Below, in pieces: positions 13,584-27,959 of a stretch of DNA of 59,609 nt. The DNA is from an uncultured archaeon (GTDB taxonomy: Archaea; Aenigmatarchaeota; Aenigmatarchaeia; QMZP01). Position 1 is the first letter of the stretch. Each line of letters begins with the position of its first letter. Under the pieces are notes generated by a model, which did no database searches, had not been told where the DNA came from, and saw only the letters and a program-made list of their open reading frames with translations. The position numbers were made by a program, and so were the translations under genes. The stretch lies in the NCBI GenBank assembly GCA_964555875.1, contig CAZKUD010000002.1, forward strand, positions 1-59,609, in the 5' to 3' direction.

Positions 13584-13736
13584 ATGGACGGGTATGTTCT
13601 TCTGGGCGTCGGCGTCATCCTGGCAGCCATCGGCGGAAGCACGGTGGCATACCTCAAGCTCCTCAAGAAGAGGGTCAGGAAGTATGTCCTGAGGTACGAG
13701 AGGATAGAGAAATACTACAAAAAGGAGAAGGAATGA
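13584..13736 (+). CDS. 50-aa single-TM protein coupled to the rhomboid gene
   Basis: MDGYVLLGVGVILAAIGGSTVAYLKLLKKRVRKYVLRYERIEKYYKKEKE; ATGA overlap with 13733. Confidence 0.75.
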   Translation: MDGYVLLGVGVILAAIGGSTVAYLKLLKKRVRKYVLRYERIEKYYKKEKE

Positions 13737-14323
13737 AACAGGCATTGGCAGTGTCTTCAGTCTCCGGTGGGATAGCCCTCATGTGCGCTGCTGTGTTCTT
13801 CCTCGTGCCCGACTCCCTCGCCATGCTCGCGTTCTCCGGGTCGGCCTTCCTGCAGGGGGAGGCCTGGAGGCTTCTCACCTTCCCGTTCGCACACGTCAGC
13901 CTGCAGCACCTGCTGGAGAACATGATGGCGCTCGGGATAGCAGCCATGCTATCGTATGAGGTCGGGCTGAGGGGCAGGCATTTCATAGGCACTTTCCTCC
14001 TATCGGGCCTGTGCGTGGCGCTGGTGCAGACGCCCATAGTGCCCCTTGTGCCTGTCGCAGGCGCCTCACTCGGCATATACTCTGTCTTTGGCTCCCTCTC
14101 CATCAGGAGCTCCAACTTCATACCCAAGTACCTTTCGGTCCCCCTGCTGGGCACCCCTGTGTTCCTGATGTACACCATCAACATGCTCATGTCCCCTGCC
14201 GCAGCTGACGGGAGGGTGCTGCTCCAGCTCATCTTCCACCTGGCAGGGTTCGTTTCTGGCATACTCCTGTTCTACGGGTTCAGCTGGGTGGACAGGAAAA
14301 GGAAGAAGAGGTTACTCTCATGA
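13733..14323 (+). CDS. Rhomboid-family intramembrane serine protease
   Basis: WRLLTFPFAHVSLQHLLENM, GAS catalytic-Ser motif (GASLG), C-terminal His (FHLAGF). Confidence 0.88.
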   Translation: MKQALAVSSVSGGIALMCAAVFFLVPDSLAMLAFSGSAFLQGEAWRLLTFPFAHVSLQHLLENMMALGIAAMLSYEVGLRGRHFIGTFLLSGLCVALVQTPIVPLVPVAGASLGIYSVFGSLSIRSSNFIPKYLSVPLLGTPVFLMYTINMLMSPAAADGRVLLQLIFHLAGFVSGILLFYGFSWVDRKRKKRLLS

Positions 14324-14442
14324 TTCTGGTTTCAGGAGAGGATGCATGTGGTGCCATTCTTGTTTAAACAGATAGCAAGAAACGCTAAACTTTTGGAAAA
14401 GGCTTATATTGGTAAAGGCACATATTTTACATGTGACTTGAC

Positions 14443-14802
14443 ATGGCCAGGATCCTTGTGGTTGATGACGAAGAGGACGTCTTGGAGATGATACACCACA
14501 TACTGAAGAGGAGCGGCCACCATGTCACAACTGCCCGGAACGGGGCTGAATGTCTCACCAAGCTCAGGAAGGGGAAACCTGACCTGGTGCTTCTTGACAT
14601 AGTCATGCCGGGTATGTCAGGGTTTGACGTGCACAGGAAGATAAGGAAATACTACAGCGGCATGAAGGTCGCGTTCGTCAGCGTGCTGGACGTGACCCCC
14701 AGGAAGAGGAAGGAGCTCATGAAGGATGGCATACTGGACTACATAACCAAGCCCTTCGCACCGGACGAGCTTGTCTCCAGGGTCAACTCAATAATAGAAT
14801 GA
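14443..14802 (+). CDS. Stand-alone response regulator receiver
   Basis: VVDDEE, LDIVMP phosphoacceptor, YITKPF. Confidence 0.95.
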   Translation: MARILVVDDEEDVLEMIHHILKRSGHHVTTARNGAECLTKLRKGKPDLVLLDIVMPGMSGFDVHRKIRKYYSGMKVAFVSVLDVTPRKRKELMKDGILDYITKPFAPDELVSRVNSIIE

Positions 14803-14968
14803 GCCTACCTTTCTGTCAGCAGTATGAACAGCAGCACAGCAGACACGGCCATCCAGCCCGCGCTGAGCGGGACGGTTATGTGCGGCCCAGAGCCTCCGAA
14901 CTTGGCGGCCATCAGGATGAGGACTGAGAACAGAAGGAACAGCAGGCCCGCCTTGCTGAGGACGTCTT

Positions 14969-15706
14969 TCATTGCGCCTTCTTGCCAGACGCCTTGTGGA
15001 AGGGCTCCAGGTCAGGGTAGACCGTTATGCCGTCGTCCCTTATCTTGAGGGCCCTTATGCTTTCCGAATGGCCTATCCCCCTCATCTTGACTATGGACAC
15101 CGCCCGCTCGTACATGTTCTCGAACGGTATCCTGTGGAGGACTATCACGCCGTCCACCACGAACTCCTCGAAACCGTACCAGCTTATGCCCTTAGAGCCC
15201 TCGGGCACCTCGCACGTCAGGACTGTGGTGCAGTCCAGGGCGTCCAGGGTGGAGGTCAGTTCCGCGAGGGCCTTGCGCCTGTCCGAGTCTGTCTCAAAAA
15301 GCATGGTAAAGAGATTGACCGAGTCGAGGACAACCCTTTTCGCGCCGCTCTCCTCTATTATCTCCCTTATCTCCTTGGAGATGTCGAACATGTTCGCCCT
15401 GGTCCTGTCCTTGAAGAACTTGACGTGCCCGACAGGGCCTCCGACGAGGGTCAGCTTGCCTGATTTTTCTGCTTCCCCGAAATCTATCCCTATCTCCTTA
15501 AGGTCCTGCATGAGCCTCTTCTTGCCCTGCTCGAAGGTGACGTACAGGCAGGGCTCGCCTGACTTTATGCCCTCCCTTATGAACTGGGAAGCGAATATGG
15601 TCTTGCCGCATCCCGAGGAGCCTGACACCAGGAAGGTCCTGCCCCTCGGCAGGCCGCCCTTCAGCATCCTGTCCATTCCCTTTACCCCGGCCTTCACCCT
15701 GTCCAT
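14969..15706 (-). CDS. Single-domain KaiC-like (RAD55/ArlH clade) ATPase
   Basis: LKGGLPRG, SGSSGCGKT, YVTFEQ, RVVLDS, FVVDGVIVLH, IVKMRG. Confidence 0.92.
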   Translation of the reverse strand: MDRVKAGVKGMDRMLKGGLPRGRTFLVSGSSGCGKTIFASQFIREGIKSGEPCLYVTFEQGKKRLMQDLKEIGIDFGEAEKSGKLTLVGGPVGHVKFFKDRTRANMFDISKEIREIIEESGAKRVVLDSVNLFTMLFETDSDRRKALAELTSTLDALDCTTVLTCEVPEGSKGISWYGFEEFVVDGVIVLHRIPFENMYERAVSIVKMRGIGHSESIRALKIRDDGITVYPDLEPFHKASGKKAQ

Positions 15707-15909
15707 CCAAACATGGTTTCAGCAATGGAGTTATTTAACCTTCCGTTGACTTGGATAATATTTTTCCCAGAGACCATTTACAAAGTGAAAACCGGTTTAC
15801 CGTCAGGTTCACATTTTTCAGCCTATATTTACTTTGTTATCCGTGTGAGCACCCTGGTTGACAGGGTAAACGGAACTATTATATGCGAAGCTGACGCTGT
15901 TTCTAACAC

Positions 15910-17634
15910 ATGGCAAAGAAAGGACGGGCAGCCCCGGGAAGGATTAGCACTGCAAGGAAGGCCCTGAAAGACAGCAGGAGGCTTTCCGGAGGCATCCTGA
16001 GGGACGCGAAGAGGCTGAAGGACACGGAGAAGAAGCTCCTCGAGTCCGAGAGAGAGAAGAAAGCCATACTGGACTCCCTGTCAGAGCTCGTCATCTACCT
16101 TGACATGGACTTCAGGACCATGTGGGCGAACAGGTCCGCCAAGAAGGCTGCCAGACCGCTGTCCAGGAAGCTGGTGGGCAGGAAGTGCTACGAGGTCTGG
16201 GGGAGGCGGAAGTCGCCCTGCCCGGGATGCCCCGTCAGGAAGGCGTTCAGGACAGGGAAGCCGGAGCAGGCCGAGATTGGGACGCCTGACGGAAGGGTCT
16301 GGTCCATCCGGGGGAACCCGGTGAGGGGCAAAGGAAAGATCATCGGCGCGGTGGAGATAATAGATGAAATCACCAAGAAGAAGGAGGCAGACAAGGCCCT
16401 GAAGGAGAGCGAGGAGAAGCTGTCGACCATGATAAAGAAGAGCCCGATCCCGACTGCAATCGGCGGCTCGGACGGCTCGATAATATCTTTCAATGAGGCC
16501 CTGGAACGGCTTATAGGATACAGGCAGTCCGAGATAAAGAACGTCAGGGAATGGTCAAGGAAGCTGTATCCCGACAGGAAATACCGGGAATCCGTGGAAA
16601 GGAACATAAAACAGGCCCTGGCAGGAAAGAGGCAGGAATGCTCTGTGTTCAATGTCACGTGCAAGGACGGCTCCACAAAGACAATAGAATTCCACACGTC
16701 ATTCTTCAGTGAAGGCCTCATAATACAGATGGTCGACGTGACAGAGAAGAAGGGGGCAGAAAAAAGGCTGAAGGAAAGCGAGGAGAAATGGAGGTCGCTC
16801 ACAGAGAACGTGCCGTCAATACTGTTCGCCACTGACAGGAAAGGCAGGATAACGTTCATAAACAGGACCGTCTCAGGCTTCTCTGTAGACAAGGTGATAG
16901 GGAAGAGCATATACGATTACATAAACCCTGAATACCATGGGAAGGTGAAGAAAGCCATGAAGAGTGTGCTGGAGACAGGGAAGCCCGAAAGTTATGAGAA
17001 CCTCGCCTCGGGTCCCCACGGGGAGGACAGGTGGTATTCCACCACCATCAGCCCCCTCATGAGGGGGGGAAAGAGGGTGGGCATAGTTCAGATTGCCACT
17101 GACATAACCGGGAGGAAGAAGGCAGAGAAGATTATCAGGGAGAGCGAGGAGAGGCACAAGTCGATACTGGACGGGGCCAACGACGGGGTACTGGTGGCGG
17201 ACGTCAGGACCAGGAAGTTCGTGTTCGCCAACCCGAGAATATGCGAGATGACAGGGTATCCCATCAAGGAACTAATGAGCATGAACGTCGGCATGATACA
17301 CCCGAAGAAGGATGTGGCCAGGATAGGCAGGATATTCAGGAAACAGATAAAAGGCGAGATTGGGATGGCGAGGGACCTGCCTGTGCTGAGGAAGGACGGA
17401 AAGATAATATACTGCGACATAAACTCCAAGCTCGTGGAGATAAACGACAGGGACTGCCTGGTGGGCTTCTTCAGGGACATAACGGACAAGAAGAAGTCGG
17501 ACGAGGAGCTCAGGAAAAGGACAGAAGAGCTCGAGAGGTTCAACAGGCTGGCTGTCGGAAGGGAGCTCAAGATGATGGAGCTGAAGAAGAAGGTGAAGGA
17601 GCTGGAGTCCAGGCTTGACGGAAAAGGGAAGTGA
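15910..17634 (+). CDS. Cytoplasmic multi-PAS (4 PAS/PAC) sensor ending in a coiled coil, with no kinase domain
   Basis: Four PAS-PAC units (WAN, SFN, FIN, FANP...DIT); first PAS carries CYEVW...CPGCP; C-terminus GRELKMMELKKKVKELE. Confidence 0.92.
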   Translation: MAKKGRAAPGRISTARKALKDSRRLSGGILRDAKRLKDTEKKLLESEREKKAILDSLSELVIYLDMDFRTMWANRSAKKAARPLSRKLVGRKCYEVWGRRKSPCPGCPVRKAFRTGKPEQAEIGTPDGRVWSIRGNPVRGKGKIIGAVEIIDEITKKKEADKALKESEEKLSTMIKKSPIPTAIGGSDGSIISFNEALERLIGYRQSEIKNVREWSRKLYPDRKYRESVERNIKQALAGKRQECSVFNVTCKDGSTKTIEFHTSFFSEGLIIQMVDVTEKKGAEKRLKESEEKWRSLTENVPSILFATDRKGRITFINRTVSGFSVDKVIGKSIYDYINPEYHGKVKKAMKSVLETGKPESYENLASGPHGEDRWYSTTISPLMRGGKRVGIVQIATDITGRKKAEKIIRESEERHKSILDGANDGVLVADVRTRKFVFANPRICEMTGYPIKELMSMNVGMIHPKKDVARIGRIFRKQIKGEIGMARDLPVLRKDGKIIYCDINSKLVEINDRDCLVGFFRDITDKKKSDEELRKRTEELERFNRLAVGRELKMMELKKKVKELESRLDGKGK

Positions 17635-20081
17635 AAATGCATATCGTACTTCCCATGCTGGCTGCAGCCGTCAATTTCCTGCTCGGCATCTACATAATAT
17701 ACAGGGACCCTTCGGGCAGGATGAACAGGCTCTTTGCGATGGTGGCATTCTCCCTGGTAATATGGTCCCTGGGGGATTTTCTGACCCATGTCCCGCACGG
17801 CTCTCCTGAACTGCTGTCAGGAATCATGTCCTCAGCCGGCTCGTATTTCACAGTGGCGTTCATGCTGCATTTTTTCCTGATGTTCACGAAGAACAGCTTC
17901 ATTTCCGGAAAGCTGCGGATTGCCATGCTGTACCTGCCCGCAGTCGGCTTTCTGTCCCTGGACATGGCTTTGGCTGCCCTCCCACTGGCATGGGATTCTT
18001 TCTTCCCTTCGGCAACATACATTCTGGCGTACACCATTGCCGGCCTTGTGCTCTGCTACAGGCATTACATTAACTTGGCTCCAGGAAGGGAGCGCACCCA
18101 ATCCAAGCTCCTGATATTCGCCGTCATGTTTCCCCTGGTGGGAGGCACCGCGACAGAGGTCCTGCCAAGGGTTTTGCAGCTCCAGTCATTCCCCCTCACA
18201 TCAAGCCTGACTGCCCTGACATCAGTCATAATAGCATATGCTATCATAAAGCACGGCCTGATGACCGTCCCAGGCATGAGATTCGGTCTGGTGCTGAAGA
18301 TACTGATGATATTCGTAATCCTGTCCACCGTGCCCCTGCTGGTGACGGCGTATTTCTCCATGAGCTTCATAGGAGAGATGAGCGGCACGATATCCGGCTC
18401 AGCGTCAGGTATAAGGGATGAAATAAGCCTGGAAGTGGGTTCCGCCCTCAAGGAAATGGGGGAGTCCATGATAAGGAACAAGGCAGAGTCTGTCGCATGG
18501 AACCTCAACCACCAGCTGGAGCACCATATGCCGGGACTGCTTATGGAGGAGCTCAGGGAGAGGGGTGACCTCAAGGATGCGGCTGTCCAGAAGGTGGGCA
18601 GGACAGGATACACGGCTGTCCATGACACAGAAGGCATAAACCATTTCCATGTGAACGAAAACCTTGTCGGGACAGACCTGCATGACCTGGCCGGGAAGCT
18701 GCCGGAATTCTGGGCAATATTGGAGAGTAGCCTGGAAGGCGAGGCATGGGGACATTACGCATGGGAGGACGAGGACGGCAGCATAAGGGACAAGTACATG
18801 CACTGCACCCATACGGAAAGGGGCGGCCTGGTGGTCTGCGCCACAACCTACATTGACGAGTTCTCTGAGCCGCTAAAGGACATAGACAGGAAGATGAACG
18901 CATCTGTCACCGCAACGGTGTCAAGGCTTGAGATGTCAAACTCCCTCTTCACCGGGATGATATGGATAATATCGGGGTCAATGAGCATAGTGATACTGAT
19001 TTTCGGGCTCATGATATCCAGGGCCGTCACCAACCCGCTAGTCAGCCTGGCAAAGGTGGCAGGGAAGATAGGGAAGGGGGAGCGAATAAACAGGCTTGAC
19101 GACAAGCACAACGACGAGATAGGCCAGCTGGCCAAGGCCTTCAACATGATGGACAGGAACTTGAGGAAATCCAAGAGAAAGCTGGAAGAATACAACAGGA
19201 GTCTTGAAACAGAGGTCAAGAGGAGGACCAAAGAGCTGGAGAGGAAGGTGGGGGAGCTTAAGAAGACGAAAATGGCGACCCTCAACATGATGGAGGACCT
19301 GAACGAGACTAACGAGGAGCTGGAAAGAAAGAAAAGGGAGATAGGAAAGGCCAACATGGAGCTGAAGAGGTTCAACAGGGAACTGAAGAAGATGGACATG
19401 CTGAAGAGCGAGTTCATGAACATAGGCGCGCACGAACTCAAGACGCCGCTCATACCGATAGTGGGCTACCTGGACATGATGTCAAAGGAGAAGAACCTGA
19501 CAAGCGAGCAGAGGAACGAGATAGCCATATGCCTGAGGAACGCCAAGAGGCTGCAGGCCCTTGTGCAGGACATACTGGACATATCCAAGCTGGAGTCCAG
19601 GGCCATGAAGTTCGACATGCAGGAGATGGACCTGAGGAAGATACTCATGAACACCTTCACTGACATGAAGTCTGCCGCAAAGGACAAGGGCCTGCAGCTG
19701 AAGGTCAGCCTGCCACAGAAGCCCCTCAAGGTGATGGGGGACCCCTACAGGCTCACCCAGGTGACAGAGAACCTGGTCAACAATGCCATAAAGTTCACGG
19801 ACAGCGGTCACATAGCTATAGAGGCATCGAGGGGCAACGGGAACGTGCTGGTGGAAGTGAAGGACACCGGAGTGGGGGTGTCCAGGAAGGACCTCTCCAA
19901 GCTGTTCACCAAGTTCTTCCAGGCAGACACGTCAGCCAAGAGGAAATACGGGGGCTCAGGGCTGGGGCTGGCCATATGCAAGAGCATAGTGGAGGAGCAC
20001 AAGGGAAGGATATGGGCAAAGAGTAAACCGGGAAAGGGAAGCACGTTCGCTTTCAGTTTACCGGGTAAAGGTGGGGTTTAA
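17631..20081 (+). CDS. Membrane sensor histidine kinase: N-terminal multi-TM domain, Cache-like extracellular domain, HAMP, coiled coil, HisKA, HATPase_c
   Basis: H-box AHELKTPL, N-box NNAIKFT, G1 DTGVG, G2 GSGLGL; HAMP PLVSL...DEIGQLAKAFN. Confidence 0.95.
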   Translation: MKMHIVLPMLAAAVNFLLGIYIIYRDPSGRMNRLFAMVAFSLVIWSLGDFLTHVPHGSPELLSGIMSSAGSYFTVAFMLHFFLMFTKNSFISGKLRIAMLYLPAVGFLSLDMALAALPLAWDSFFPSATYILAYTIAGLVLCYRHYINLAPGRERTQSKLLIFAVMFPLVGGTATEVLPRVLQLQSFPLTSSLTALTSVIIAYAIIKHGLMTVPGMRFGLVLKILMIFVILSTVPLLVTAYFSMSFIGEMSGTISGSASGIRDEISLEVGSALKEMGESMIRNKAESVAWNLNHQLEHHMPGLLMEELRERGDLKDAAVQKVGRTGYTAVHDTEGINHFHVNENLVGTDLHDLAGKLPEFWAILESSLEGEAWGHYAWEDEDGSIRDKYMHCTHTERGGLVVCATTYIDEFSEPLKDIDRKMNASVTATVSRLEMSNSLFTGMIWIISGSMSIVILIFGLMISRAVTNPLVSLAKVAGKIGKGERINRLDDKHNDEIGQLAKAFNMMDRNLRKSKRKLEEYNRSLETEVKRRTKELERKVGELKKTKMATLNMMEDLNETNEELERKKREIGKANMELKRFNRELKKMDMLKSEFMNIGAHELKTPLIPIVGYLDMMSKEKNLTSEQRNEIAICLRNAKRLQALVQDILDISKLESRAMKFDMQEMDLRKILMNTFTDMKSAAKDKGLQLKVSLPQKPLKVMGDPYRLTQVTENLVNNAIKFTDSGHIAIEASRGNGNVLVEVKDTGVGVSRKDLSKLFTKFFQADTSAKRKYGGSGLGLAICKSIVEEHKGRIWAKSKPGKGSTFAFSLPGKGGV

Positions 20082-20118
20082 AAGCATATGTTACACTATA
20101 TAAAAGGAGGGACTGGAA

Positions 20119-20475
20119 ATGCCCAAAATACTTATCGTTGACGACGAGCCTGACACGGTTGAACTGATAAGCATTATCCTGGGGAAGAAGGGGTATGAAG
20201 TTGCCAAGGCCTACAGTGGAAAGGAATGCCTGGAGGCTTTCAGGAAAGAGAAGCCTGACCTGATACTCCTGGACATAATGATGCCCGGGATGTCAGGCTG
20301 GGACGTGTACGGCAGGATAAGGAAGCTGGACAAGAAGGTGAAGGTCGCCTTCGTCAGCGTGATAGAGATATCCCCCGAGAGGCTCCAGGTCCTGAAGAAG
20401 GACGGAGTGTCGGACTACATAACCAAGCCTTTCACAGCTGACAACCTACTCAAGAGGGTAGGTTCCATAATCTGA
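20119..20475 (+). CDS. Stand-alone response regulator receiver (paralog of 14443)
   Basis: IVDDE, LDIMMP, KVAFVSV and DYITKPF shared with the first receiver. Confidence 0.95.
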   Translation: MPKILIVDDEPDTVELISIILGKKGYEVAKAYSGKECLEAFRKEKPDLILLDIMMPGMSGWDVYGRIRKLDKKVKVAFVSVIEISPERLQVLKKDGVSDYITKPFTADNLLKRVGSII

Positions 20476-20477
20476 GG

Positions 20478-21014
20478 TCACACCCGCAAGACCTTGTCGA
20501 AGTAGAGGGATATCCTGTTGACCAGGTCGCCTCCCCTGGCCTCAGGGGTGAGCATGACCGTCTTGAGGCCGTACCTGGAAGTCTCCTCCACCATCGACTT
20601 CACGAACTTTATCACGAGCGCCTCTGTGTTGTAGATGAGCAGCGTTGCCAGGGCGTCTATCAGGAGGAACTTCTCGCCCGGGACCTTCTCCAGGAACTCG
20701 TTTATGGCTATGCTCAGGCTGGTCAGGTCAGAGGGGCTCTGTATGTGTATGACGTTCTTCTCGTTCTCTGCCTCCCCGAGGGATGCTGTTATGCAGTCTA
20801 TGAAGAATACCTTGGAGGTGTCGACCCCCCGCTTCTCCAGGAGCTCCTTCACCGCCTTCTGGGGCTTGTTGAAGCAGACGTAAACCCCTGCTATGCCTGC
20901 CTTGGTGTACTCCCCTATCATCCCGTCAGCGGCCTCCTGCAGCCTGTCCGGCGGGGACACCGCCAGCACGGAATAGCTCTTCCCGTCAAGTCCATCCAAT
21001 TCCATTATTTTCAT
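20478..21014 (-). CDS. Degenerate KaiC/RecA-fold protein (DUF835/DUF7504-like)
   Basis: GVYVCFNKP, FFIDCI, LLIDALATLLIYN; no Walker A. Confidence 0.65.
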   Translation of the reverse strand: MKIMELDGLDGKSYSVLAVSPPDRLQEAADGMIGEYTKAGIAGVYVCFNKPQKAVKELLEKRGVDTSKVFFIDCITASLGEAENEKNVIHIQSPSDLTSLSIAINEFLEKVPGEKFLLIDALATLLIYNTEALVIKFVKSMVEETSRYGLKTVMLTPEARGGDLVNRISLYFDKVLRV

Positions 21015-21053
21015 AGTATGTCACCTGAAAGATATATTTGTTTAAACATGGTT

Positions 21054-21638
21054 TCACTCCAGCTTCTTGAAAAGGCTCTCCCTGAATTTGTCTATCTCGC
21101 CCAGTGAAAGGGGCCTGTCAGGCCTCTCCCTCCCCATCTCGTCTATTATCTTGTGGAACAGCTGCACAGGGCTGTTCTTTATCAGGCTGTGCTGGGAGAA
21201 GATGAATATGTCCTTTATCTCCATGTACTGGTTGTACTGGGGGACTGTCTTGAGGGTGTGGAAGTAGCCGTCAAGCTCTTGGAGGTCCCTGAAGCCGCAC
21301 AGGGCTATATGCGTTGCCGAGCCCTGGGGTATCCTGTAGACGTCTATCACGTGGGGAAGCTCGGCCACTTTCTGCTCTATCCCGAACTCCCCCAGCTCCT
21401 CCCAGCTCTTGAGGGTGAACTTGAAGACTGTGACAGCGAACGTGTTTACGCCCAGCTTGCCGTAGTCCAGGACAGTGGAGTAGCCCTTTATTATCCCGGA
21501 ATTCTCCAGCTTCTTCCTTATCTTTCCCACCGCCTGCTTGGTTATCCTTAGCTGCTTGGCGATTTTGGTGTCGCTGGCCCTCCCGTTCTCTATGAGAATT
21601 TTGAGCGATTTCTTTTCATTGTGGGTTAGTTTTACCAT
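21054..21638 (-). CDS. Lrp/AsnC family transcriptional regulator
   Basis: HTH GRASDTKIAKQL...KLENSGIIKGY followed by a RAM-like domain. Confidence 0.88.
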   Translation of the reverse strand: MVKLTHNEKKSLKILIENGRASDTKIAKQLRITKQAVGKIRKKLENSGIIKGYSTVLDYGKLGVNTFAVTVFKFTLKSWEELGEFGIEQKVAELPHVIDVYRIPQGSATHIALCGFRDLQELDGYFHTLKTVPQYNQYMEIKDIFIFSQHSLIKNSPVQLFHKIIDEMGRERPDRPLSLGEIDKFRESLFKKLE

Positions 21639-21714
21639 GTTAATGGATATTTGAATTACTGGTTAATAAAATTAACGTCAGGTTTTTATCGGAAGTTGAT
21701 GAACCATTTATCAG

Positions 21715-22206
21715 ATGGAAAGGGAATGGTTTGCTGCCTTGCTCATATGCCTTCTCCTTATGCCTTTCTGCGCACACGCGCAGGCAGGGGAGCTGGCGGC
21801 GCTGGAAAAGGACAGGGATACAGCGGCAGTGGGCGAGGCTGTCACGGTATCAGCCACGTTCGTGAACCTGGGCAGCGGGGCTGTCGAGGCCAAACTGAAT
21901 GGGGAGGCTTACCTGGAAGGGGAACTCGTTTCCGTGATAGAGGGCGGAACCAGCCAGGTGCCCCCCGGGGCGGCCGGGGTGCTGGAAGCTGTTTTTGTTC
22001 CCGGGAAGATAGGCCTGTACACCATCAAGGGCACCGTTATATACTCGGGCGAATCCACAAGCCAGAAGGAAGTGACCATTCCTGTCATATCCAAGTCCAC
22101 CGGGATGGAGCTGGCAGAGGACATGACCGTCCCCCTGATGGTCGACGGGCTGCTGGCCCTGGTGATAGTGGCAGGCGTGCTCATGCTCAAGAGGAGGAGG
22201 AGATGA
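21715..22206 (+). CDS. Secreted single Ig-like (CARDB-like) protein with C-terminal TM
   Basis: Signal peptide, VGEAVTVSATFVNLG, TVPL-TM-KRRRR. Confidence 0.8.
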   Translation: MEREWFAALLICLLLMPFCAHAQAGELAALEKDRDTAAVGEAVTVSATFVNLGSGAVEAKLNGEAYLEGELVSVIEGGTSQVPPGAAGVLEAVFVPGKIGLYTIKGTVIYSGESTSQKEVTIPVISKSTGMELAEDMTVPLMVDGLLALVIVAGVLMLKRRRR

Positions 22207-22736
22207 AGCACATTGCACTCTCCCTCGCTTTCAGCCTTCTCCTTCTCCTCCCTCTTTCTTCAGCCTACACCATATCCTCGCTGTCGGCTGATTCCCCGGT
22301 GTCGGTCGGGGAGGTCATGAAGGTAACGGCAGTGTTCGAGAACACCGGGCCCCAGACATATGCGGTGCTGGAAGTCGACGTCTACAGCAACGGGGAGAAG
22401 GTGACCGAACTGAAGGGCGACAGGATGAACGTCCCAGTGAACGGGAACAGGGAGCTTTTCGCTTATTTCATGCCGCAGCGCCCGGGGACCTATATCCTGA
22501 GTCCAAGGGTGGAGCACGGAGGCGGCACCACCACGTCCCAGGGCATCACTGTGACTGTCACAGACGAATACGGGGCAGCAGGCTGGACCAACCATGAGAC
22601 GGTCCCCCTGGGCCTGGGCATGACGGTGATAGCAGTGGTCTTCGTGTCCATGTTCGTCATGTACATGGTGAAGTCCAAGAGCATCATAGCGAAGAAAGGT
22701 TTACAGGATAAACGAAGGCGCTCTGGAAAGGGTTGA
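22203..22736 (+). CDS. Secreted single Ig-like protein, paralog of 21715
   Basis: True start MKHIALS at 22203 (ATGA overlap); VGEVMKVTAVFENTG, TVPL-TM-basic tail. Confidence 0.8.
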   Translation: MKHIALSLAFSLLLLLPLSSAYTISSLSADSPVSVGEVMKVTAVFENTGPQTYAVLEVDVYSNGEKVTELKGDRMNVPVNGNRELFAYFMPQRPGTYILSPRVEHGGGTTTSQGITVTVTDEYGAAGWTNHETVPLGLGMTVIAVVFVSMFVMYMVKSKSIIAKKGLQDKRRRSGKG

Positions 22737-22739
22737 TTT

Positions 22740-22850
22740 ATGAACACCCAGGACATCGTCCCTCTGGCAGTCACAATCACCACGGTCGGGATAGGCATGC
22801 TGATGATCACATACATAGGCTGGAGGACCAGGAGGATAAGCAGGCTCTAA
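22740..22850 (+). CDS. 36-aa single-TM peptide
   Basis: MNTQDIVPLAVTITTVGIGMLMITYIGWRTRRISRL; starts 3 nt after the upstream stop. Confidence 0.6.
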   Translation: MNTQDIVPLAVTITTVGIGMLMITYIGWRTRRISRL

Positions 22851-24562
22851 TCGAGCACCTTCAGCACTTCGTACACCATTATGGGCCTGGCCTTTCCCTT
22901 GAACTCCATCTTGCCCAGCTTCTTCACCTTGACCCTGTCCTTCACCATCCTGTATGTGCCCTCTGCTATCAGGACCTTGTCCCCCTCTGCCTTGGAGCAG
23001 AGCCTGGAGGCCAGGTTGACCGCGTCCCCTATTATGGTGTAGTCCAGCCTGCGCTCTGAGCCCATGTTGCCCACGACTGCAGGCCCTGTGTTCACGCCTA
23101 TCCCGTACTTGACTGCAGGCATGCCCTCCTTCCTGGCCAGCTCCTTCGCCGAAGCCTGCATCTCCAGGGCGGCCCTTATGGCGTTCAGGATGTGGTCCTC
23201 CTGCTTGAGGGGCGCGTTGAAGAAGGCCATCAGGCAGTCTCCCATGTATTTGTCCAATGTGCCGCCGTACTTGAAGACCTTGTCTGTCATGTCCCCGAAA
23301 TAATGGTTGAGCATGTCTATCACCTCTTCAGGCGTGAGCTTCTCTGAGAGGGCAGTGAAGCCCCTTATGTCAGCGAAGAGTGCCGTTATCTCCCTCTTGG
23401 TGCCTCCCAGCCTGACCTGGTCCTTGGTCGTGGTCTCCAGTATCTCGTCCACCACTGCAGGAGAGACGTACTTGCCGAATATGTTCTGCACCCACTGCCT
23501 GTTCCTCTTCTCTATCCCGTAGTAGAGGATGATTATTATCATGTACACAGAGATGACCGACATGACAGGGTACAGGACATTCATCACTATCCCCTGCTCT
23601 ATCATGGCTATTGACAGGAGGGCATACCCCAGTATAATGGCCGCTGCGACAGCAGTGGAGAGCAGCACCCTGAGCCTGGACAGGGCGAAGCCGGTCAGGA
23701 GGGAGAGCATCAGCATCACGAGTATGGTGCTGGCAGCGTCCTGCCTGAATATGTAGTCCCTCAGGACCAGGGTCTGCACCAGGTTGGCGTTTATCTCCAC
23801 GCCTGCCATCGGCCTGCCCCATGAGACTGGCACGTACTGTTCGTCATGAAGGTCCCTGGAAGTGGCGCCTATCAGCACCATCTTGCCCTCCAGGTAGGAG
23901 GGGTCCACTCCCCCGCTGAGCAGGTCGGTGAAGGAAACGCTCTCATAGCTTCCTGGCGTCCCGTAGAAGTTTATCAGGACCGTTTCAGACGGCGGCTTGA
24001 CGGTGTCGCCTATGTACTTCTCGGCCACCACCATTGCGAAGCCCTCGGCAGCCTCTGTCCCGTCCAGGTAGAGCGGGGCCCTCCTGGTTATGCCGTCTGA
24101 TTCAGTGAACATGTTCACGTAGCCGTAGTCCGCGTCCAGGACGGGCCTGAGGAATTCCTCGCCGTACAGCTTCCCCTCCCTGACGGAGAATGACGTGTAT
24201 TCCGAGGCCAGCACCACGTTACCTGCAGAGTCAATAGCCTGCTGGAGCAGCTGGTCGTCGCCTGAAGGCTCGAAGAAGGAGACGTCTATCCCCACCGCCT
24301 TGGCGCCTTCCAGAAGGCCCAGGGCCTCTGCAAAGACCTTCCTGTCCCAGGGCCACCTGCCTATTTCCTGGAGCGACCTGTCGTCAATGGCTACTATCAC
24401 TATCTCGCCGAGGGGCCTCCCGACAGAATAGAGGGCGTCGCTGGTCCTCAGGCTGGTCGTGCCCATGAAGCCGGAAACGAGCAGGATGGAAAGTACAGCA
24501 AAGACTGCAAGTGACACTGTCATGTCTGCCAGAAGCTTCCGCTTCAGGAAGTTGTGGAGCAT
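22847..24562 (-). CDS. CHASE2-domain class III adenylate cyclase
   Basis: CHASE2 IVIVAIDDRSLQEIGRWPWDR, 3 TMs, LFADIRGFT, KYMGD, DYTIIGDAVNLASRL (Lys/Asp ATP-specifying residues). Confidence 0.93.
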   Translation of the reverse strand: MLHNFLKRKLLADMTVSLAVFAVLSILLVSGFMGTTSLRTSDALYSVGRPLGEIVIVAIDDRSLQEIGRWPWDRKVFAEALGLLEGAKAVGIDVSFFEPSGDDQLLQQAIDSAGNVVLASEYTSFSVREGKLYGEEFLRPVLDADYGYVNMFTESDGITRRAPLYLDGTEAAEGFAMVVAEKYIGDTVKPPSETVLINFYGTPGSYESVSFTDLLSGGVDPSYLEGKMVLIGATSRDLHDEQYVPVSWGRPMAGVEINANLVQTLVLRDYIFRQDAASTILVMLMLSLLTGFALSRLRVLLSTAVAAAIILGYALLSIAMIEQGIVMNVLYPVMSVISVYMIIIILYYGIEKRNRQWVQNIFGKYVSPAVVDEILETTTKDQVRLGGTKREITALFADIRGFTALSEKLTPEEVIDMLNHYFGDMTDKVFKYGGTLDKYMGDCLMAFFNAPLKQEDHILNAIRAALEMQASAKELARKEGMPAVKYGIGVNTGPAVVGNMGSERRLDYTIIGDAVNLASRLCSKAEGDKVLIAEGTYRMVKDRVKVKKLGKMEFKGKARPIMVYEVLKVLD

Positions 24563-24563
24563 A

Positions 24564-25400
24564 TCAGTTCCTTATCGCCATGTCGATTACCCACTGGGGC
24601 ATCTCTGGGGGTATGTCGCACTCGCCCCTCAGCCAGCACCTGACGCTGTCCTCTATCTGCTCGTCAGTCACGCCGTACTGGGACTTGCCCATCGCTATGA
24701 CGTCAGACATCCTGGACAGCAGGTCCTGGAGCTGCTCCTCTATGAAGGCGTCGTCCTTTTCCTGGTTCTCAGTCACCCAGTCGTCGGTCACGAGGTCCCC
24801 TGCTATGACGGTCAGGTCCAGGTCGACCGTTATCATCTGGCCTTCGTCTATCTGCGCCTCGTCTATCCTGACCAGCTCGCCCGTCTCCATGGAATAGGTG
24901 TAGGCGTCCAGGGTGCCTTCCAGGAGCTTGACGTATATCTTGCCGTCATCCCCCAGGTAGAAGCCGAAGCCCGTCCCCCTGACAGATGCGACCGTCGTGG
25001 GCGTCTGCACATTGTATTCCTCTATGCCGCTGAGCTTGAGTACCTTGCTCCATGTCCTTCCCGATGCCTGCTCTACGGTTACCTTCGTGCCGGCCTTGTC
25101 GGCTATCAGGTCCTTCAGGGTGACCTCAGTGTTCTCGTCGAGCCTGATTATGCTGGACTCGAACAGTATGATGGAGGCCCTTGCGCCCGGGGCTGTCCTG
25201 ACTGTGTCGGACTGGGCCAGAATCTGCCCGGTGGCAACCGTCTTCCAGGTGTCACCTGACTTCATCTCGACCAGGCCCGCGTCGACCACCAGCTGGGCCG
25301 ATACGGCAGGCGGCCCGGCAATCTTGAAGTAGAAATAGCCGCCAATGCCAAGAAGGACCACTATTATGATAACAGGCACGAGTACCTTCTTGCTCACCAT
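24564..25400 (-). CDS. Membrane-anchored FecR-domain protein
   Basis: N-terminal TM, DTVRT...SIIRLDENT, TPTTVASVRGTGF; 1 nt upstream of the cyclase. Confidence 0.88.
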   Translation of the reverse strand: MVSKKVLVPVIIIVVLLGIGGYFYFKIAGPPAVSAQLVVDAGLVEMKSGDTWKTVATGQILAQSDTVRTAPGARASIILFESSIIRLDENTEVTLKDLIADKAGTKVTVEQASGRTWSKVLKLSGIEEYNVQTPTTVASVRGTGFGFYLGDDGKIYVKLLEGTLDAYTYSMETGELVRIDEAQIDEGQMITVDLDLTVIAGDLVTDDWVTENQEKDDAFIEEQLQDLLSRMSDVIAMGKSQYGVTDEQIEDSVRCWLRGECDIPPEMPQWVIDMAIRN

Positions 25401-25434: not shown

Positions 25435-26928
25435 TCAGACCCTGTCCTTCAGAAGGTCAAGCCTGTGCCTGTACTCCCCTGCCATCTCCCTGACGTCCTC
25501 AGACGCTGTCCCTGTGTACTTCTCCGGGTCGAGTATCTGCTCCCTTGTCCAGGGGTCTGCCGAATCAAGAGCCTCCCTCATGAGGGGGTCCTCCATCGCC
25601 AGCTCAGGGAGGGGCCTGCCTGTTTCCCTGGCCCTGTCTGAAAGCAGCCTGACCTCCTCATGGGCGTCCCTGAATTCGCCCTCGAAGGCGTCCTGGTTGT
25701 CGCCCATCCACTTCTGCAGGTAGAGCTGGAGGGGCTCTGCCGCAGTCAGGCCTCTCATCATACCCACGTTCTCAAGCATCTTGTTCGGCCTGATGGTCAG
25801 GTTCCTGGCTATCTTGGTGGCCTTCCTGGCAGCCCCCAGGGCTATGTTGGGCATCTCGAATATGTAGTACCTCTTGTTGCCCGAGTCCCTCAGGTCCCTC
25901 TGGAAGTCTGTCATGAAGTCCTGGTTCACCGCCACCATCTGGCCCATCATCTGCCTGAACTTGGCGCCCGCCACGTTCTCTGAGTTTATCGGGTTTATCT
26001 TGTGCGCGCCTGTTGACGAGCCTACCTGCTCGCCTACCCGCTTCTCCATCATCTCGCCCACCTCTGTCTGCTGGTAGCCCCTCATGTCATTGCAGAACTT
26101 GGCCTGGCCTGCCACTGACATGAACAGCTGGCCCATGTAGTCGGCGTAATAGTACTGGTTGACAGTCTGTCCGGTTATCCTCTCCGGGGTGACGCCGATT
26201 ATCCCGAACAGCCTCCTGTCTATCTCCCTCGGGTCTGTCCTGAACAGGACCTTCCTGGCCGCGTTGGTCCCCACGAATCCCGTGGCCTTGCCCCTGAGGT
26301 CATATACTGCCCTGTTGTAGTTCTCCAGGGCGGGCAGGACGCCCCCCACTATCTCCAGGAAGTAGTGGCCCACCGTGGTAGGTGCAGCATGCTGCCTGTG
26401 GGTCCTTCCCATCATGATGGTGTCAGGGTGCTCCTCTGCCCTTGTTACCAGCTCAGTGCAGAAGCCCGACAGCTCGGGCACCATCACCTCTGTGCCGAAG
26501 TCCAGGAGGGCCATCGACTGGGCCGTGTTCAGGACGTCATAGCTCGTGAAGCCCAGGTACAGGTAGTTCCTGGCCCTGGGGCTCAGGACGTCCCAGCACG
26601 CCTTGACTATCCCCCTCACGTCATGGTGTATTATGTTCTCCCAGTGCTCTGCCCTCTTGAAGGGCACGTTCTCCAGGGTTATCTTCCCCTCTATCTCGTC
26701 TGCCACGTCCTTCGGTATCTCGCCCAGCTCCCCCAATACCCTGGCATTGGTCCTGAGGAACTTGAGGGAATAGCCGTGTATGGCCCCAGGGGAGACGTAG
26801 GCGACAGACTCCTTCTCTATGTACCTGGCTGAACCGGGGGGCAGGAACTCTGAAAGGCCCTTTATCTCAAGGAATGCGGAATCCAGCCTTTGTGTCGTGG
26901 TTTCAGACTCCATGTAAGGCGAAGGCAT
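25435..26928 (-). CDS. purB: Adenylosuccinate lyase
   Basis: HHDV, MMGRTHRQHAAPTT, GSSTGAHKINP (variant of SSxMPxKxNP); purine context. Confidence 0.9.
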   Translation of the reverse strand: MPSPYMESETTTQRLDSAFLEIKGLSEFLPPGSARYIEKESVAYVSPGAIHGYSLKFLRTNARVLGELGEIPKDVADEIEGKITLENVPFKRAEHWENIIHHDVRGIVKACWDVLSPRARNYLYLGFTSYDVLNTAQSMALLDFGTEVMVPELSGFCTELVTRAEEHPDTIMMGRTHRQHAAPTTVGHYFLEIVGGVLPALENYNRAVYDLRGKATGFVGTNAARKVLFRTDPREIDRRLFGIIGVTPERITGQTVNQYYYADYMGQLFMSVAGQAKFCNDMRGYQQTEVGEMMEKRVGEQVGSSTGAHKINPINSENVAGAKFRQMMGQMVAVNQDFMTDFQRDLRDSGNKRYYIFEMPNIALGAARKATKIARNLTIRPNKMLENVGMMRGLTAAEPLQLYLQKWMGDNQDAFEGEFRDAHEEVRLLSDRARETGRPLPELAMEDPLMREALDSADPWTREQILDPEKYTGTASEDVREMAGEYRHRLDLLKDRV

Positions 26929-27023
26929 GTATAACTAATGGGAGCGAAACTTTTTATTGGGAATGCCGCATGATGGAACCCTGGACAGGCGCCCTTAAAT
27001 AATTTCGCGCCAAATATAATGCA

Positions 27024-27959
27024 ATGACGATAGACGCCAACTACCCCACGATGAGGGAAACCAGGCTCCCCCTCGGGCCTGTCAGGAGGGGGAAGGTCAG
27101 GGACATATACGAGCTGGACGACAAGCACCTTCTGATAGTCACCACTGACAGGATATCGGTCTATGACAGGGTCCTTCCCGACTGCGTGCCCCACAAGGGC
27201 TTCGGCCTGAACCGGACAGCAGATTACGTCTTCGTGGAGACCAAAGGCATAGTGCCGAACCACATGGTGGACGTGCCTGACGAGAACTCGATGGTGGTCA
27301 GGAGGGCCGACACGGTTTACCCTGTCGAGGTGATAGTCAGGGGGATAATAACAGGCTCTGCCTGGAAGACGTACCAGAAGGGCCTTCCCATATGCGGCAT
27401 AACCCTGCCTCCAGGGCTGGTCAAGAACCAGATGCTTGACGAGCCGATAGTCACGCCCACCACCAAGGCAGAGGTGGGGCATGACGAGCCGATAACGCAC
27501 GGGCAGGCCAGGGAGCTGGTGGGGCCCCACTGGGACGGGATAGTGGAAGCCTCCCTGGAGCTTTTCAGGGAAGGCAACAGGATGGCAGGGGAGAGGAACG
27601 CCATGCTGGCTGACACCAAGTTCGAGTACGGGGCGATAGACGGCAGGCTCACGCTGCTGGACGAGGCACTCACGCATGATTCATCCAGGTGGCTGGAGAC
27701 AGCCGAATGGGAGGCTGCCCTGAGGGAGGGCAGGGACCCTGACTGGATAGACAAGCAGTTCGTCAGGAACTACACAGTATCGGTCGGGTTTGAAGGGGAA
27801 GGCGAGCCGCCCAGCCTGCCTGACAACATCAGGAGGGGGGCTGCAGAGAGGATAATGAAGGTCCTCTACTTCCTGTCAGGGAATTACCCCACTGAGCCTG
27901 AGGCCCCGCCGTCTGACGAAAGGATAATGGGCAATCTCAAGGGGAGCCTGTGGATATGA
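27024..27959 (+). CDS. purC: SAICAR synthetase (long, ADE1-like type)
   Basis: RGKVRDIY, TDRISVYD, EVIVRGIITGS, TPTTKAEVGHD, ADTKFEYG, DSSR, DKQFVR. Confidence 0.96.
   Translation: MTIDANYPTMRETRLPLGPVRRGKVRDIYELDDKHLLIVTTDRISVYDRVLPDCVPHKGFGLNRTADYVFVETKGIVPNHMVDVPDENSMVVRRADTVYPVEVIVRGIITGSAWKTYQKGLPICGITLPPGLVKNQMLDEPIVTPTTKAEVGHDEPITHGQARELVGPHWDGIVEASLELFREGNRMAGERNAMLADTKFEYGAIDGRLTLLDEALTHDSSRWLETAEWEAALREGRDPDWIDKQFVRNYTVSVGFEGEGEPPSLPDNIRRGAAERIMKVLYFLSGNYPTEPEAPPSDERIMGNLKGSLWI

Follow-up and report, generated by a model that had tools for sequence, protein, structure and literature searches.

Stand-alone receivers and their probable KaiC-fold partner in a signalling cassette of an uncultured aenigmatarchaeon

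Introduction

Some 40% of the response regulators of archaea consist of a receiver alone, with no known target (PMC5847659). What such receivers act on is the question raised by an 11-kb region (positions 14443-25400) from an uncultured archaeon of the Aenigmatarchaeota (Aenigmatarchaeia; QMZP01). The stretch of DNA analysed, hereafter the window, has 59,609 nucleotides and spans positions 1 to 59,609 of contig CAZKUD010000002.1 (assembly GCA_964555875.1). A preliminary description of the sequence had seen in this region one dense signalling island. We find that it is two independent units: a signalling cassette with a sensor kinase, two output-less receivers, a KaiC-like ATPase (KaiC1) and a dead KaiC-fold protein (inactivated KaiC, iKaiC), and an operon for a FecR-domain protein and a CHASE2 adenylate cyclase. 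The dead KaiC-fold protein is probably the receivers' missing partner.

The source contig is C2 of a 15-contig genome (1.09 Mb, 89% complete, 0.06% contamination). The phylum consists of a single class with 371 species genomes of 0.4-1.9 Mb each, and judged on genome sizes the host lineage is of DPANN type, a possibility that the preliminary description had raised. Below, genomes of the phylum carry G numbers and contigs C numbers.

A signalling cassette next to a separate operon

A census of the genome counted two receiver (REC) domains and a single histidine kinase, iKaiC, PAS protein and class III cyclase, every one of them at the locus; three more KaiC-like genes lie outside it. Because the genome's sole RECs, kinase, iKaiC, PAS protein and class III cyclase all lie here, their clustering is far beyond chance. 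The locus is flanked by housekeeping genes: upstream lie those for an ABC exporter and a small kinase-like protein, downstream those for purine biosynthesis. Neither flanking direct or inverted repeats nor an integrase were detected at the ends of the cassette.

The region divides into two units because G001 has the cyclase and FecR genes without the cassette and G039 has the cassette without the cyclase. The first unit, at about 13.6-22.8 kb, runs from a rhomboid gene to sec2 in the order rhomboid, RR1, KaiC1, 4xPAS, kinase, RR2, iKaiC, Lrp, sec1, sec2. It is a self-contained cassette that holds the organism's entire two-component system. The second unit (22847-25400, minus strand) encodes the FecR protein and the CHASE2 adenylate cyclase and is a separate operon of bacterial-type design. 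Pfam reproduced all domain calls of the preliminary description where it had placed them, and the gene clustering it reported stands, but its single island has to be split, G001 having the FecR-cyclase pair alone. The genes it listed are present; sec1 and sec2, in 21651-22736, had been missed. That the network is unusually rich for a DPANN-like host, as had been suggested, is not supported: such modules are common in the phylum, where an iKaiC profile matches 137 of the 371 genomes and 78 of 170 genera.

Intact receivers beside an active-looking and a dead KaiC-fold protein

RR1 (14443-14802, plus strand, 119 aa; Response_reg 5e-29) and RR2 (20119-20475, plus strand, 118 aa; Response_reg 9.4e-30) are stand-alone CheY-like receivers that consist of a REC domain only and share 56% identity. 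Both retain what characterizes a two-component receiver: an acidic pocket, Asp52 as phospho-acceptor, Ser80 and Lys103 (D8/D9, D52, S80 and K103 are all there in RR1). In an alignment of RR1, RR2 and eight relatives, D8, D52 and K103 are invariant, and D9 and S/T80 are conserved. RR2 starts 37 bp past the kinase gene, and from this gene order we infer phosphotransfer from the kinase to RR2. At 67% identity to the G039 receiver that adjoins the kinase there, RR2 is the counterpart of the kinase-adjacent receiver; of the two copies, RR1 has diverged further. At position 37, where Ala is usual in CheY-type receivers, all ten aligned receivers of this clade have an invariant Cys, within a motif G-x-E-C-L.

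Each receiver gene is convergent with a gene for a KaiC-fold protein, RR1 with KaiC1 across a 166-bp gap and RR2 with iKaiC across a 2-bp gap. KaiC1 (14969-15706, minus strand, 245 aa) is a single-domain KaiC-like protein that matches PF06745 at 3.8e-63 over model positions 1-230 of 231. It has the full RecA domain, Walker A (GSSGCGKT), Walker B and catalytic Glu of KaiC-like ATPases, VTFE and VVLDS having been read off the sequence, and its ATPase looks active. Its matches in the PDB are the CI domain of KaiC (1.5e-59), PH0186, PH0284 and SSO2452. KaiC1 does not qualify as a circadian KaiC oscillator, which combines CI and CII with KaiB/KaiA: it has a single domain, and Pfam scans of the locus proteins gave no match to KaiA or KaiB.

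The other KaiC-fold protein, iKaiC (20478-21014, minus strand, 178 aa), is a member of the DUF7504 family (DUF7504 3e-10, with matches to DUF7090 and, at 4e-6, KaiC). It has no Walker A: the GxxxxGK[ST] motif was not found, and the P-loop position reads SPPDRLQE. Asn49, nearly invariant across the family, occupies the position of the catalytic Glu. The AlphaFold2 (AF2) model has a pLDDT of 91, and its top Foldseek matches are PH0284 (E 6e-8, TMq 0.76), FlaH and KaiC. The protein thus combines the KaiC/RecA fold, the lost ATPase motifs and the linkage to signalling inputs of the iKaiC class. At 50% identity the family falls into about 2,700 clusters, almost all of which represent stand-alone proteins about 155-235 aa long. 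The paralogous output-less receivers, the two convergent pairs and the degenerate state of the second KaiC-fold protein had all been described before, and are borne out here.

Receivers adjoin iKaiC across the phylum

A stand-alone REC gene directly adjoins a DUF7504-type iKaiC gene in at least 23 genomes from 9 families, in variable orientation. The counts are lower bounds and come from 40 relatives and from 45 further iKaiC-bearing genomes found by the phylum-wide search, three of which (G343-345) belong to the host's order. Among the 40 relatives, REC lies no more than 150 bp from iKaiC in at least 10 genomes of the order (G000, G039, G030, G017, G003, G025, G036, G038, G016 and G032). In G005, G014, G019 and G035 an iKaiC gene stands first in a sensor/kinase operon whose last gene is the receiver. 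Any REC at all was present in 24 of the 45 further genomes, and it adjoins iKaiC in at least 13 of these 24. Assuming about two of each gene per about 1000 genes, fewer than one genome with such adjacency is expected by chance. That the orientation varies, the genes being co-directional or convergent, is as expected for a selected neighbourhood. In G107, another of the 45, the two are fused in a REC-iKaiC protein of 325 aa, encoded inside a PAS-kinase/RR/RR cluster.

The preliminary description had made its proposal, that the receivers signal through KaiC-fold partners, depend on co-conservation of the genes; the adjacency and the G107 fusion supply this co-conservation and support the proposal. 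Its remark that a receiver and a KaiC-fold gene pair up twice holds for the host, but the RR1-KaiC1 pair is not conserved. No receiver stands beside KaiC in G039 or G344, both receivers being located behind the kinase.

Full KaiC ATPases recur in like clusters of G025, G036 and G005. The gene string in G003 reads KaiC, V4R, DUF116, iKaiC, RR, and in G017 KaiC is divergent from iKaiC-RR. In G083, a genome without REC, three iKaiC genes come after that for a 642-aa double-domain KaiC on contig C7, and one more comes after an HHH-KaiC gene. Fusions join iKaiC to pairs of CBS domains, and a 456-aa protein joins a weak KaiB-like match and V4R to iKaiC. The fusions show iKaiC as a module open to varied inputs. 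On the simplest reading, iKaiC would serve KaiC ATPases as an adaptor or other accessory subunit, with REC as its commonest input in trans. The published REC-DUF835, iKaiC-REC and MEDS-REC fusions (PMC5847659) agree with this.

Presence and absence of the cassette in relatives

In G001, which belongs to the same genus as the host, the orthologue of the small upstream kinase-like gene (61% identity) and that of the cyclase gene (78%) are direct neighbours in convergent orientation, followed by FecR and the pur genes. The 9.3-kb stretch from rhomboid to sec2 is missing from this junction, and neither the kinase nor REC or iKaiC was found anywhere in the genome, which is 70% complete. A different family of the order is represented by G039, where the cassette lies on two contigs. 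C8 carries 4xPAS, a solute-binding protein, the kinase and two RR genes, followed on the opposite strand by iKaiC (56%) and Lrp (67%) and, beyond these, by the sec1 and sec2 orthologues; C18 continues from a partial PAS gene to KaiC (73%) and, adjoining it, rhomboid (48%). Since C8 ends inside a PAS gene and C18 begins inside one, the two contigs are probably adjacent.

The closest iKaiC orthologues are found in the other family (G039 and G343-345) and none in the host's own. The antiporter that served as the single control shares 53% identity with its G039 counterpart and 56% with those of own-family genomes. By these comparisons the cassette would have been either laterally acquired or differentially retained. 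One species has it and a congener lacks it, which shows that entire signalling pathways are gained or lost blockwise, even in symbiont-type genomes of about 1 Mb.

A proposed relay and its alternatives

We favour, with somewhat more confidence than doubt, a reading in which the two units are independent and the cassette forms a relay from the kinase to the receivers, on to iKaiC and from there to KaiC1 and/or Lrp. The Cache domain of the kinase would sense an extracellular ligand, and the PAS-only protein may supply a cytoplasmic input. The kinase would phosphorylate RR2 and its paralogue RR1, and the phosphorylated receiver would dock on the iKaiC adaptor, so that receiver and iKaiC would together be a two-piece counterpart of REC-iKaiC response regulators. 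iKaiC would in turn modulate the ATPase ring of KaiC1, the Lrp encoded with it, or both, and Lrp would act via a palindrome in the adjoining spacer and so set its own expression and that of sec1 and sec2.

Several findings weigh against this relay. RR2 and iKaiC are convergent here and therefore not co-transcribed, and the position of RR1 next to KaiC1 is peculiar to the host genome. REC is missing altogether from 21 of the 45 further iKaiC-bearing genomes, which means that iKaiC is not a partner reserved for receivers. The link to Lrp comes from three genomes in two or three genera, and the REC-adjacent iKaiC of g43 genomes has no neighbouring Lrp. As for the history of the cassette, G001 is only 70% complete, and the cassette might lie elsewhere in its genome; lateral transfer also competes with differential loss, the G039 identities being 48-73% as against 53% for the lone control protein.

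The presence in many relatives of a second iKaiC at the head of a sensor/kinase operon is a further point against the relay, as it agrees just as well with an action upstream of the kinase. KaiC1 and iKaiC would then tune the kinase or scaffold kinase-less sensors, and the receivers would be outputs onto other targets. Operons of this kind begin with iKaiC in G003, G005, G014, G017, G019, G030, G032 and G035, and kinase-less sensors follow it directly in G003 (dCache-HAMP) and in G014, G030 and G035 (PAS proteins). The KaiB-like/V4R-iKaiC fusion points the same way, and there is the KaiC-SasA precedent: in cyanobacteria, KaiC drives the kinase SasA and the regulator RpaA. However, the REC-iKaiC, REC-DUF835 and iKaiC-REC fusions place both domains in one polypeptide, the usual arrangement of input and output domains, and the single iKaiC of the cassette adjoins a receiver and Lrp, not the head of a kinase operon. 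We regard this upstream role, the chief rival of the relay, as rather unlikely.

The genes could also be mere neighbours in a signalling island and serve independent pathways, with the receivers as phosphate sinks or bound to Lrp or other targets and KaiC1 and iKaiC as a system apart. The convergence of both receiver/KaiC-fold pairs in the host would agree with this, as would the occurrence of iKaiC/KaiC operons without any REC and the tendency of signalling genes to cluster. We doubt it strongly, given that the adjacency of REC and iKaiC persists in so many families despite changes of orientation and context, where chance would give less than one genome, and that the two are also fused. The preliminary description had further placed the CHASE2 cyclase and FecR in the same network as the two-component/KaiC module, as a parallel cyclic AMP (cAMP) branch. 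The cyclase gene does end 110 bp from the cassette, and extracytoplasmic sensing is common to both units. Yet at the corresponding site of G001 the FecR and cyclase genes are present and the cassette is not, G039 conversely has a cassette but no cyclase, 137 of the 371 genomes have iKaiC as against 8 with the cyclase, and no protein that binds cyclic nucleotide monophosphates (cNMP) is encoded; a shared cAMP branch is thus very improbable.

Extending the favoured relay beyond this genome, we put forward a broader view as a speculation that we ourselves consider unlikely to hold in full. DUF7504-type dead KaiCs would be general downstream partners of archaeal output-less receivers and couple their phosphorylation to KaiC rings. 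The relay of the cassette would end at Lrp and switch the two rhomboid-associated, VPL-tailed Ig-like surface proteins, the whole being a plug-in device, exchanged by DPANN archaea, to sense the environment and then alter the cell surface. If so, the exchanged cassette would possibly serve host recognition or attachment.

Relation to known systems

The cassette is a split-gene, DUF7504-branch variant of the known REC-iKaiC regulators and of the proposed KaiC hubs, in a DPANN lineage, packaged with Lrp, surface proteins and a rhomboid into a portable unit. REC-DUF835, iKaiC-REC and MEDS-REC fusions are archaeal response regulators with inactivated-KaiC domains (Galperin, Makarova, Wolf & Koonin 2018, PMC5847659, Table 2). 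Like these, the cassette pairs a CheY-type receiver with a KaiC/RecA-fold domain that lacks ATPase motifs, and has no DNA-binding output, output being presumed to occur via protein-protein contacts. Unlike these, it has the two on separate, convergent genes, its iKaiC is of the DUF7504/DUF7090 branch, its host is of DPANN type and not from the Methanomicrobia, Thermoplasmata or Nitrososphaera, and it is packaged with an active KaiC, Lrp and surface-protein genes.

KaiC-like ATPases have reportedly been predicted, in computational work by Makarova, Galperin and Koonin in 2017, to be signal-transduction hubs of archaea. The cassette resembles such hubs in that active and inactivated KaiC paralogues are tied by gene context to sensor and receiver domains. 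Beyond that proposal, our analysis adds a conserved cassette, a phylum-wide count of REC/iKaiC, a fusion within the phylum and a candidate output through Lrp, an operator and surface proteins. A KaiC-hub proposal for archaea is also cited in PMC5847659. As in the cyanobacterial KaiC-SasA/CikA-RpaA system, a KaiC-family ATPase would communicate with a kinase and a response regulator. KaiC1, however, is single-domain, at 245 aa, with no KaiA or KaiB in the locus, and the flow runs from KaiC to the kinase in cyanobacteria but would run from receiver to iKaiC here. The host system gives no sign of oscillation, unlike cyanobacterial KaiC.

The only experimental hint known to us that KaiC-like and two-component pathways are shared in archaea is the case of CirA and QarA. 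In Haloferax volcanii, the KaiC-like protein CirA (246 aa) and the QarA two-component system came from the same screen and concern motility and shape (PMC13464002). CirA, like KaiC1, has a single domain, and it and the two-component system influence the same behaviour. Unlike those of the cassette, the genes are not adjacent, the regulator has a helix-turn-helix (HTH) output, and no iKaiC adaptor is implicated.

For bare receivers, the conserved and sometimes fused dead-KaiC neighbour provides a specific candidate partner, in a system of four or five small soluble proteins. The host presents a minimal case, with one kinase, two receivers, one iKaiC, one neighbouring KaiC and a candidate regulator, operator and targets. 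With so few parts the wiring is unambiguous.

Sensor kinase and PAS protein

The sensor histidine kinase (17631-20081, plus strand, 816 aa) has Pfam matches to HisKA_7TM, Cache, HAMP, HisKA and HATPase_c. Its architecture is a seven-transmembrane (7TM) module, an extracytoplasmic Cache domain, a transmembrane (TM) segment, HAMP, HisKA and HATPase_c. Both the phospho-acceptor His and the HATPase_c domain that mark a HisKA-type kinase are present (HisKA 1.4e-14, HATPase_c 3.5e-31), with the H-box HELKTP at residue 601. The sensor modules differ between orthologous cassettes, being 7TM and Cache here and 4HB_MCP-HAMP in G039, where the kinase follows a family-5 solute-binding protein; the transmitter halves of the two kinases are 57% identical.

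The 4xPAS protein (15910-17634, plus strand, 574 aa) is cytoplasmic and kinase-less. PAS families are its sole Pfam matches, no TM segment was predicted in it, and its linkers repeat with a period of about 122 aa. The stop of its gene overlaps the start of the kinase gene by 4 bp. Kinase operons are likewise headed by PAS-only proteins in G039, G014, G030, G035 and G019. The first PAS domain (window 16150-16230) contains the Cys cluster CYEVWGRRKSPCPGCP (C-x10-C-x2-C), which suggests a metal or an Fe-S/redox cofactor.

Lrp regulator, palindromes and surface proteins

The Lrp/AsnC-type regulator (21054-21638, minus strand, 194 aa) matches HTH_24 at 1.4e-6. Pfam detected the HTH alone and gave no match to AsnC_trans_reg. 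In a phmmer search of the PDB, residues 10-136 align to residues 7-130 of FL11 (8e-8), and LrpA and PH1519 were matched as well. These alignments take in the HTH and the RAM domain that make up an Lrp/AsnC protein, which justifies the earlier label of Lrp; a C-terminal tail of about 55 aa is extra. The gene precedes iKaiC on its strand, with 39 bp between them, and its G039 orthologue (67%) has the same position. The string of Lrp then iKaiC occurs in three genomes (G000, G039 and G344), and in G344 (C10) kinase and REC are absent nearby. The tie of Lrp to iKaiC is thus weakly supported, as is the possibility, raised in the preliminary description, that receiver/KaiC signalling leads to Lrp.

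The 76-bp divergent spacer between Lrp and sec1 contains a perfect 15-bp palindrome, GTTAATAAAATTAAC (21662-21676), present once in the window, where 0.01 copies are expected by chance. Six sites of the GTTAATAAAATTAAC type occur genome-wide, one of them upstream of a second Lrp paralogue on C6. The related 13-mers GTTAAAAATTAAC in G344 and GTTAAAAATTGAC in G039 abut the start codons of the orthologous Lrp genes. The palindrome is a plausible candidate for an autoregulatory Lrp operator that would also control the surface-protein genes. At C6:23693-28657 of the host genome, about 3 kb separates a second FecR-like gene from a second Lrp-like one, with the palindrome GTTAAGTTAATTAAC upstream of the Lrp paralogue.

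A further palindrome of 10 bp, TGTTTAAACA, has three copies in the 1.09-Mb genome, two of them within the cassette, at 14361-14370 (73 bp upstream of RR1) and at 21039-21048 (25 bp upstream of iKaiC). A TATA-type promoter element common to the two genes, or a site for a regulator, may be what it represents; G039 and G344 do not conserve it in this form.

On the other side of the spacer, sec1 (21715-22206, plus strand, 163 aa) encodes a signal peptide, an immunoglobulin (Ig)-like (BatD/CARDB-like) domain and a VPL-TM-basic tail, and sec2 (22203-22736, plus strand, 177 aa), the right end of the cassette, encodes a second anchored Ig-like surface protein. The two are tandem paralogues, each with signal peptide, Ig-like domain and C-terminal TM anchor, and their orthologues at the same position in G039 are 31% (sec1) and 32% (sec2) identical. 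Orf361 (21651-22736) is not a gene, being a frame artefact over sec1 and sec2; the weak BatD match of sec2 in Pfam was scored on this artefactual 361-aa frame. Within window 21715-22850, the (T/I)VPL-TM-basic tail is common to sec1, sec2 and a 36-aa open reading frame (ORF), and the G039 orthologues have IIPL and IVPL.

The left end of the cassette is formed by the gene for a rhomboid intramembrane protease (13733-14323, plus strand; Pfam Rhomboid 3.6e-13). Beyond the G039 orthologue, none was found at E<=1e-10 among five other relatives searched. It is conceivable that the rhomboid would act on the VPL-tailed proteins in a rhombosortase-like processing. A 50-aa ORF with a single TM segment overlaps the rhomboid gene (window 13584-14323), at the opposite end of the cassette from the VPL tails.

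The FecR-CHASE2 cyclase operon

The class III adenylate cyclase of the second unit (22847-24562, minus strand, 571 aa) combines CHASE2 (3e-46) with Guanylate_cyc (PF00211, 1.3e-30). It has the motifs FADIRGFT, DKYMGD and GDAVNLASR, DKYMGD and LDYTIIGDAVNLASR having been read off the sequence. By the canonical motifs rather than a structural alignment, the metal Asp pair, the Lys/Asp specificity pair and the transition-state Asn/Arg of class III adenylate cyclases are all assigned. Full-length orthologues are rare, occurring in 8 of the 371 genomes. No cNMP-binding domain (PF00027) was found across the 89%-complete host genome, and the cyclase is an orphan with no recognizable receptor there for cAMP, if that is its product.

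The FecR-domain protein (24564-25400, minus strand; FecR 9.7e-14) is membrane-anchored by an N-terminal TM segment. Its gene lies 1 nt upstream of the cyclase gene, and translational coupling of the two is probable. An anchored FecR protein encoded directly upstream and a CHASE2 domain flanked by predicted TM segments are what defines a FecR/CHASE2 pair, and the FecR protein probably conditions the extracytoplasmic CHASE2 sensor. Operons of FecR and a CHASE2 sensor are known from bacteria, for example Burkholderia BiofilmReg (PMC5192318), where the gene for an extracytoplasmic FecR-domain protein is likewise immediately upstream of that for the CHASE2 membrane sensor. The output differs, being a class III adenylate cyclase here and a histidine kinase there, and the FecR protein here lacks LysM and comes from an archaeal host.

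In G001 the FecR gene again stands upstream of the cyclase gene. FecR and cyclase are 75% and 78% identical between the two genomes, and TldD/PmbA are 78-87% identical; the neighbouring PurB and PurC (window 25435-27959) are 30% and 38% identical. The purine genes may have been swapped for xenologues in the host species or in G001.

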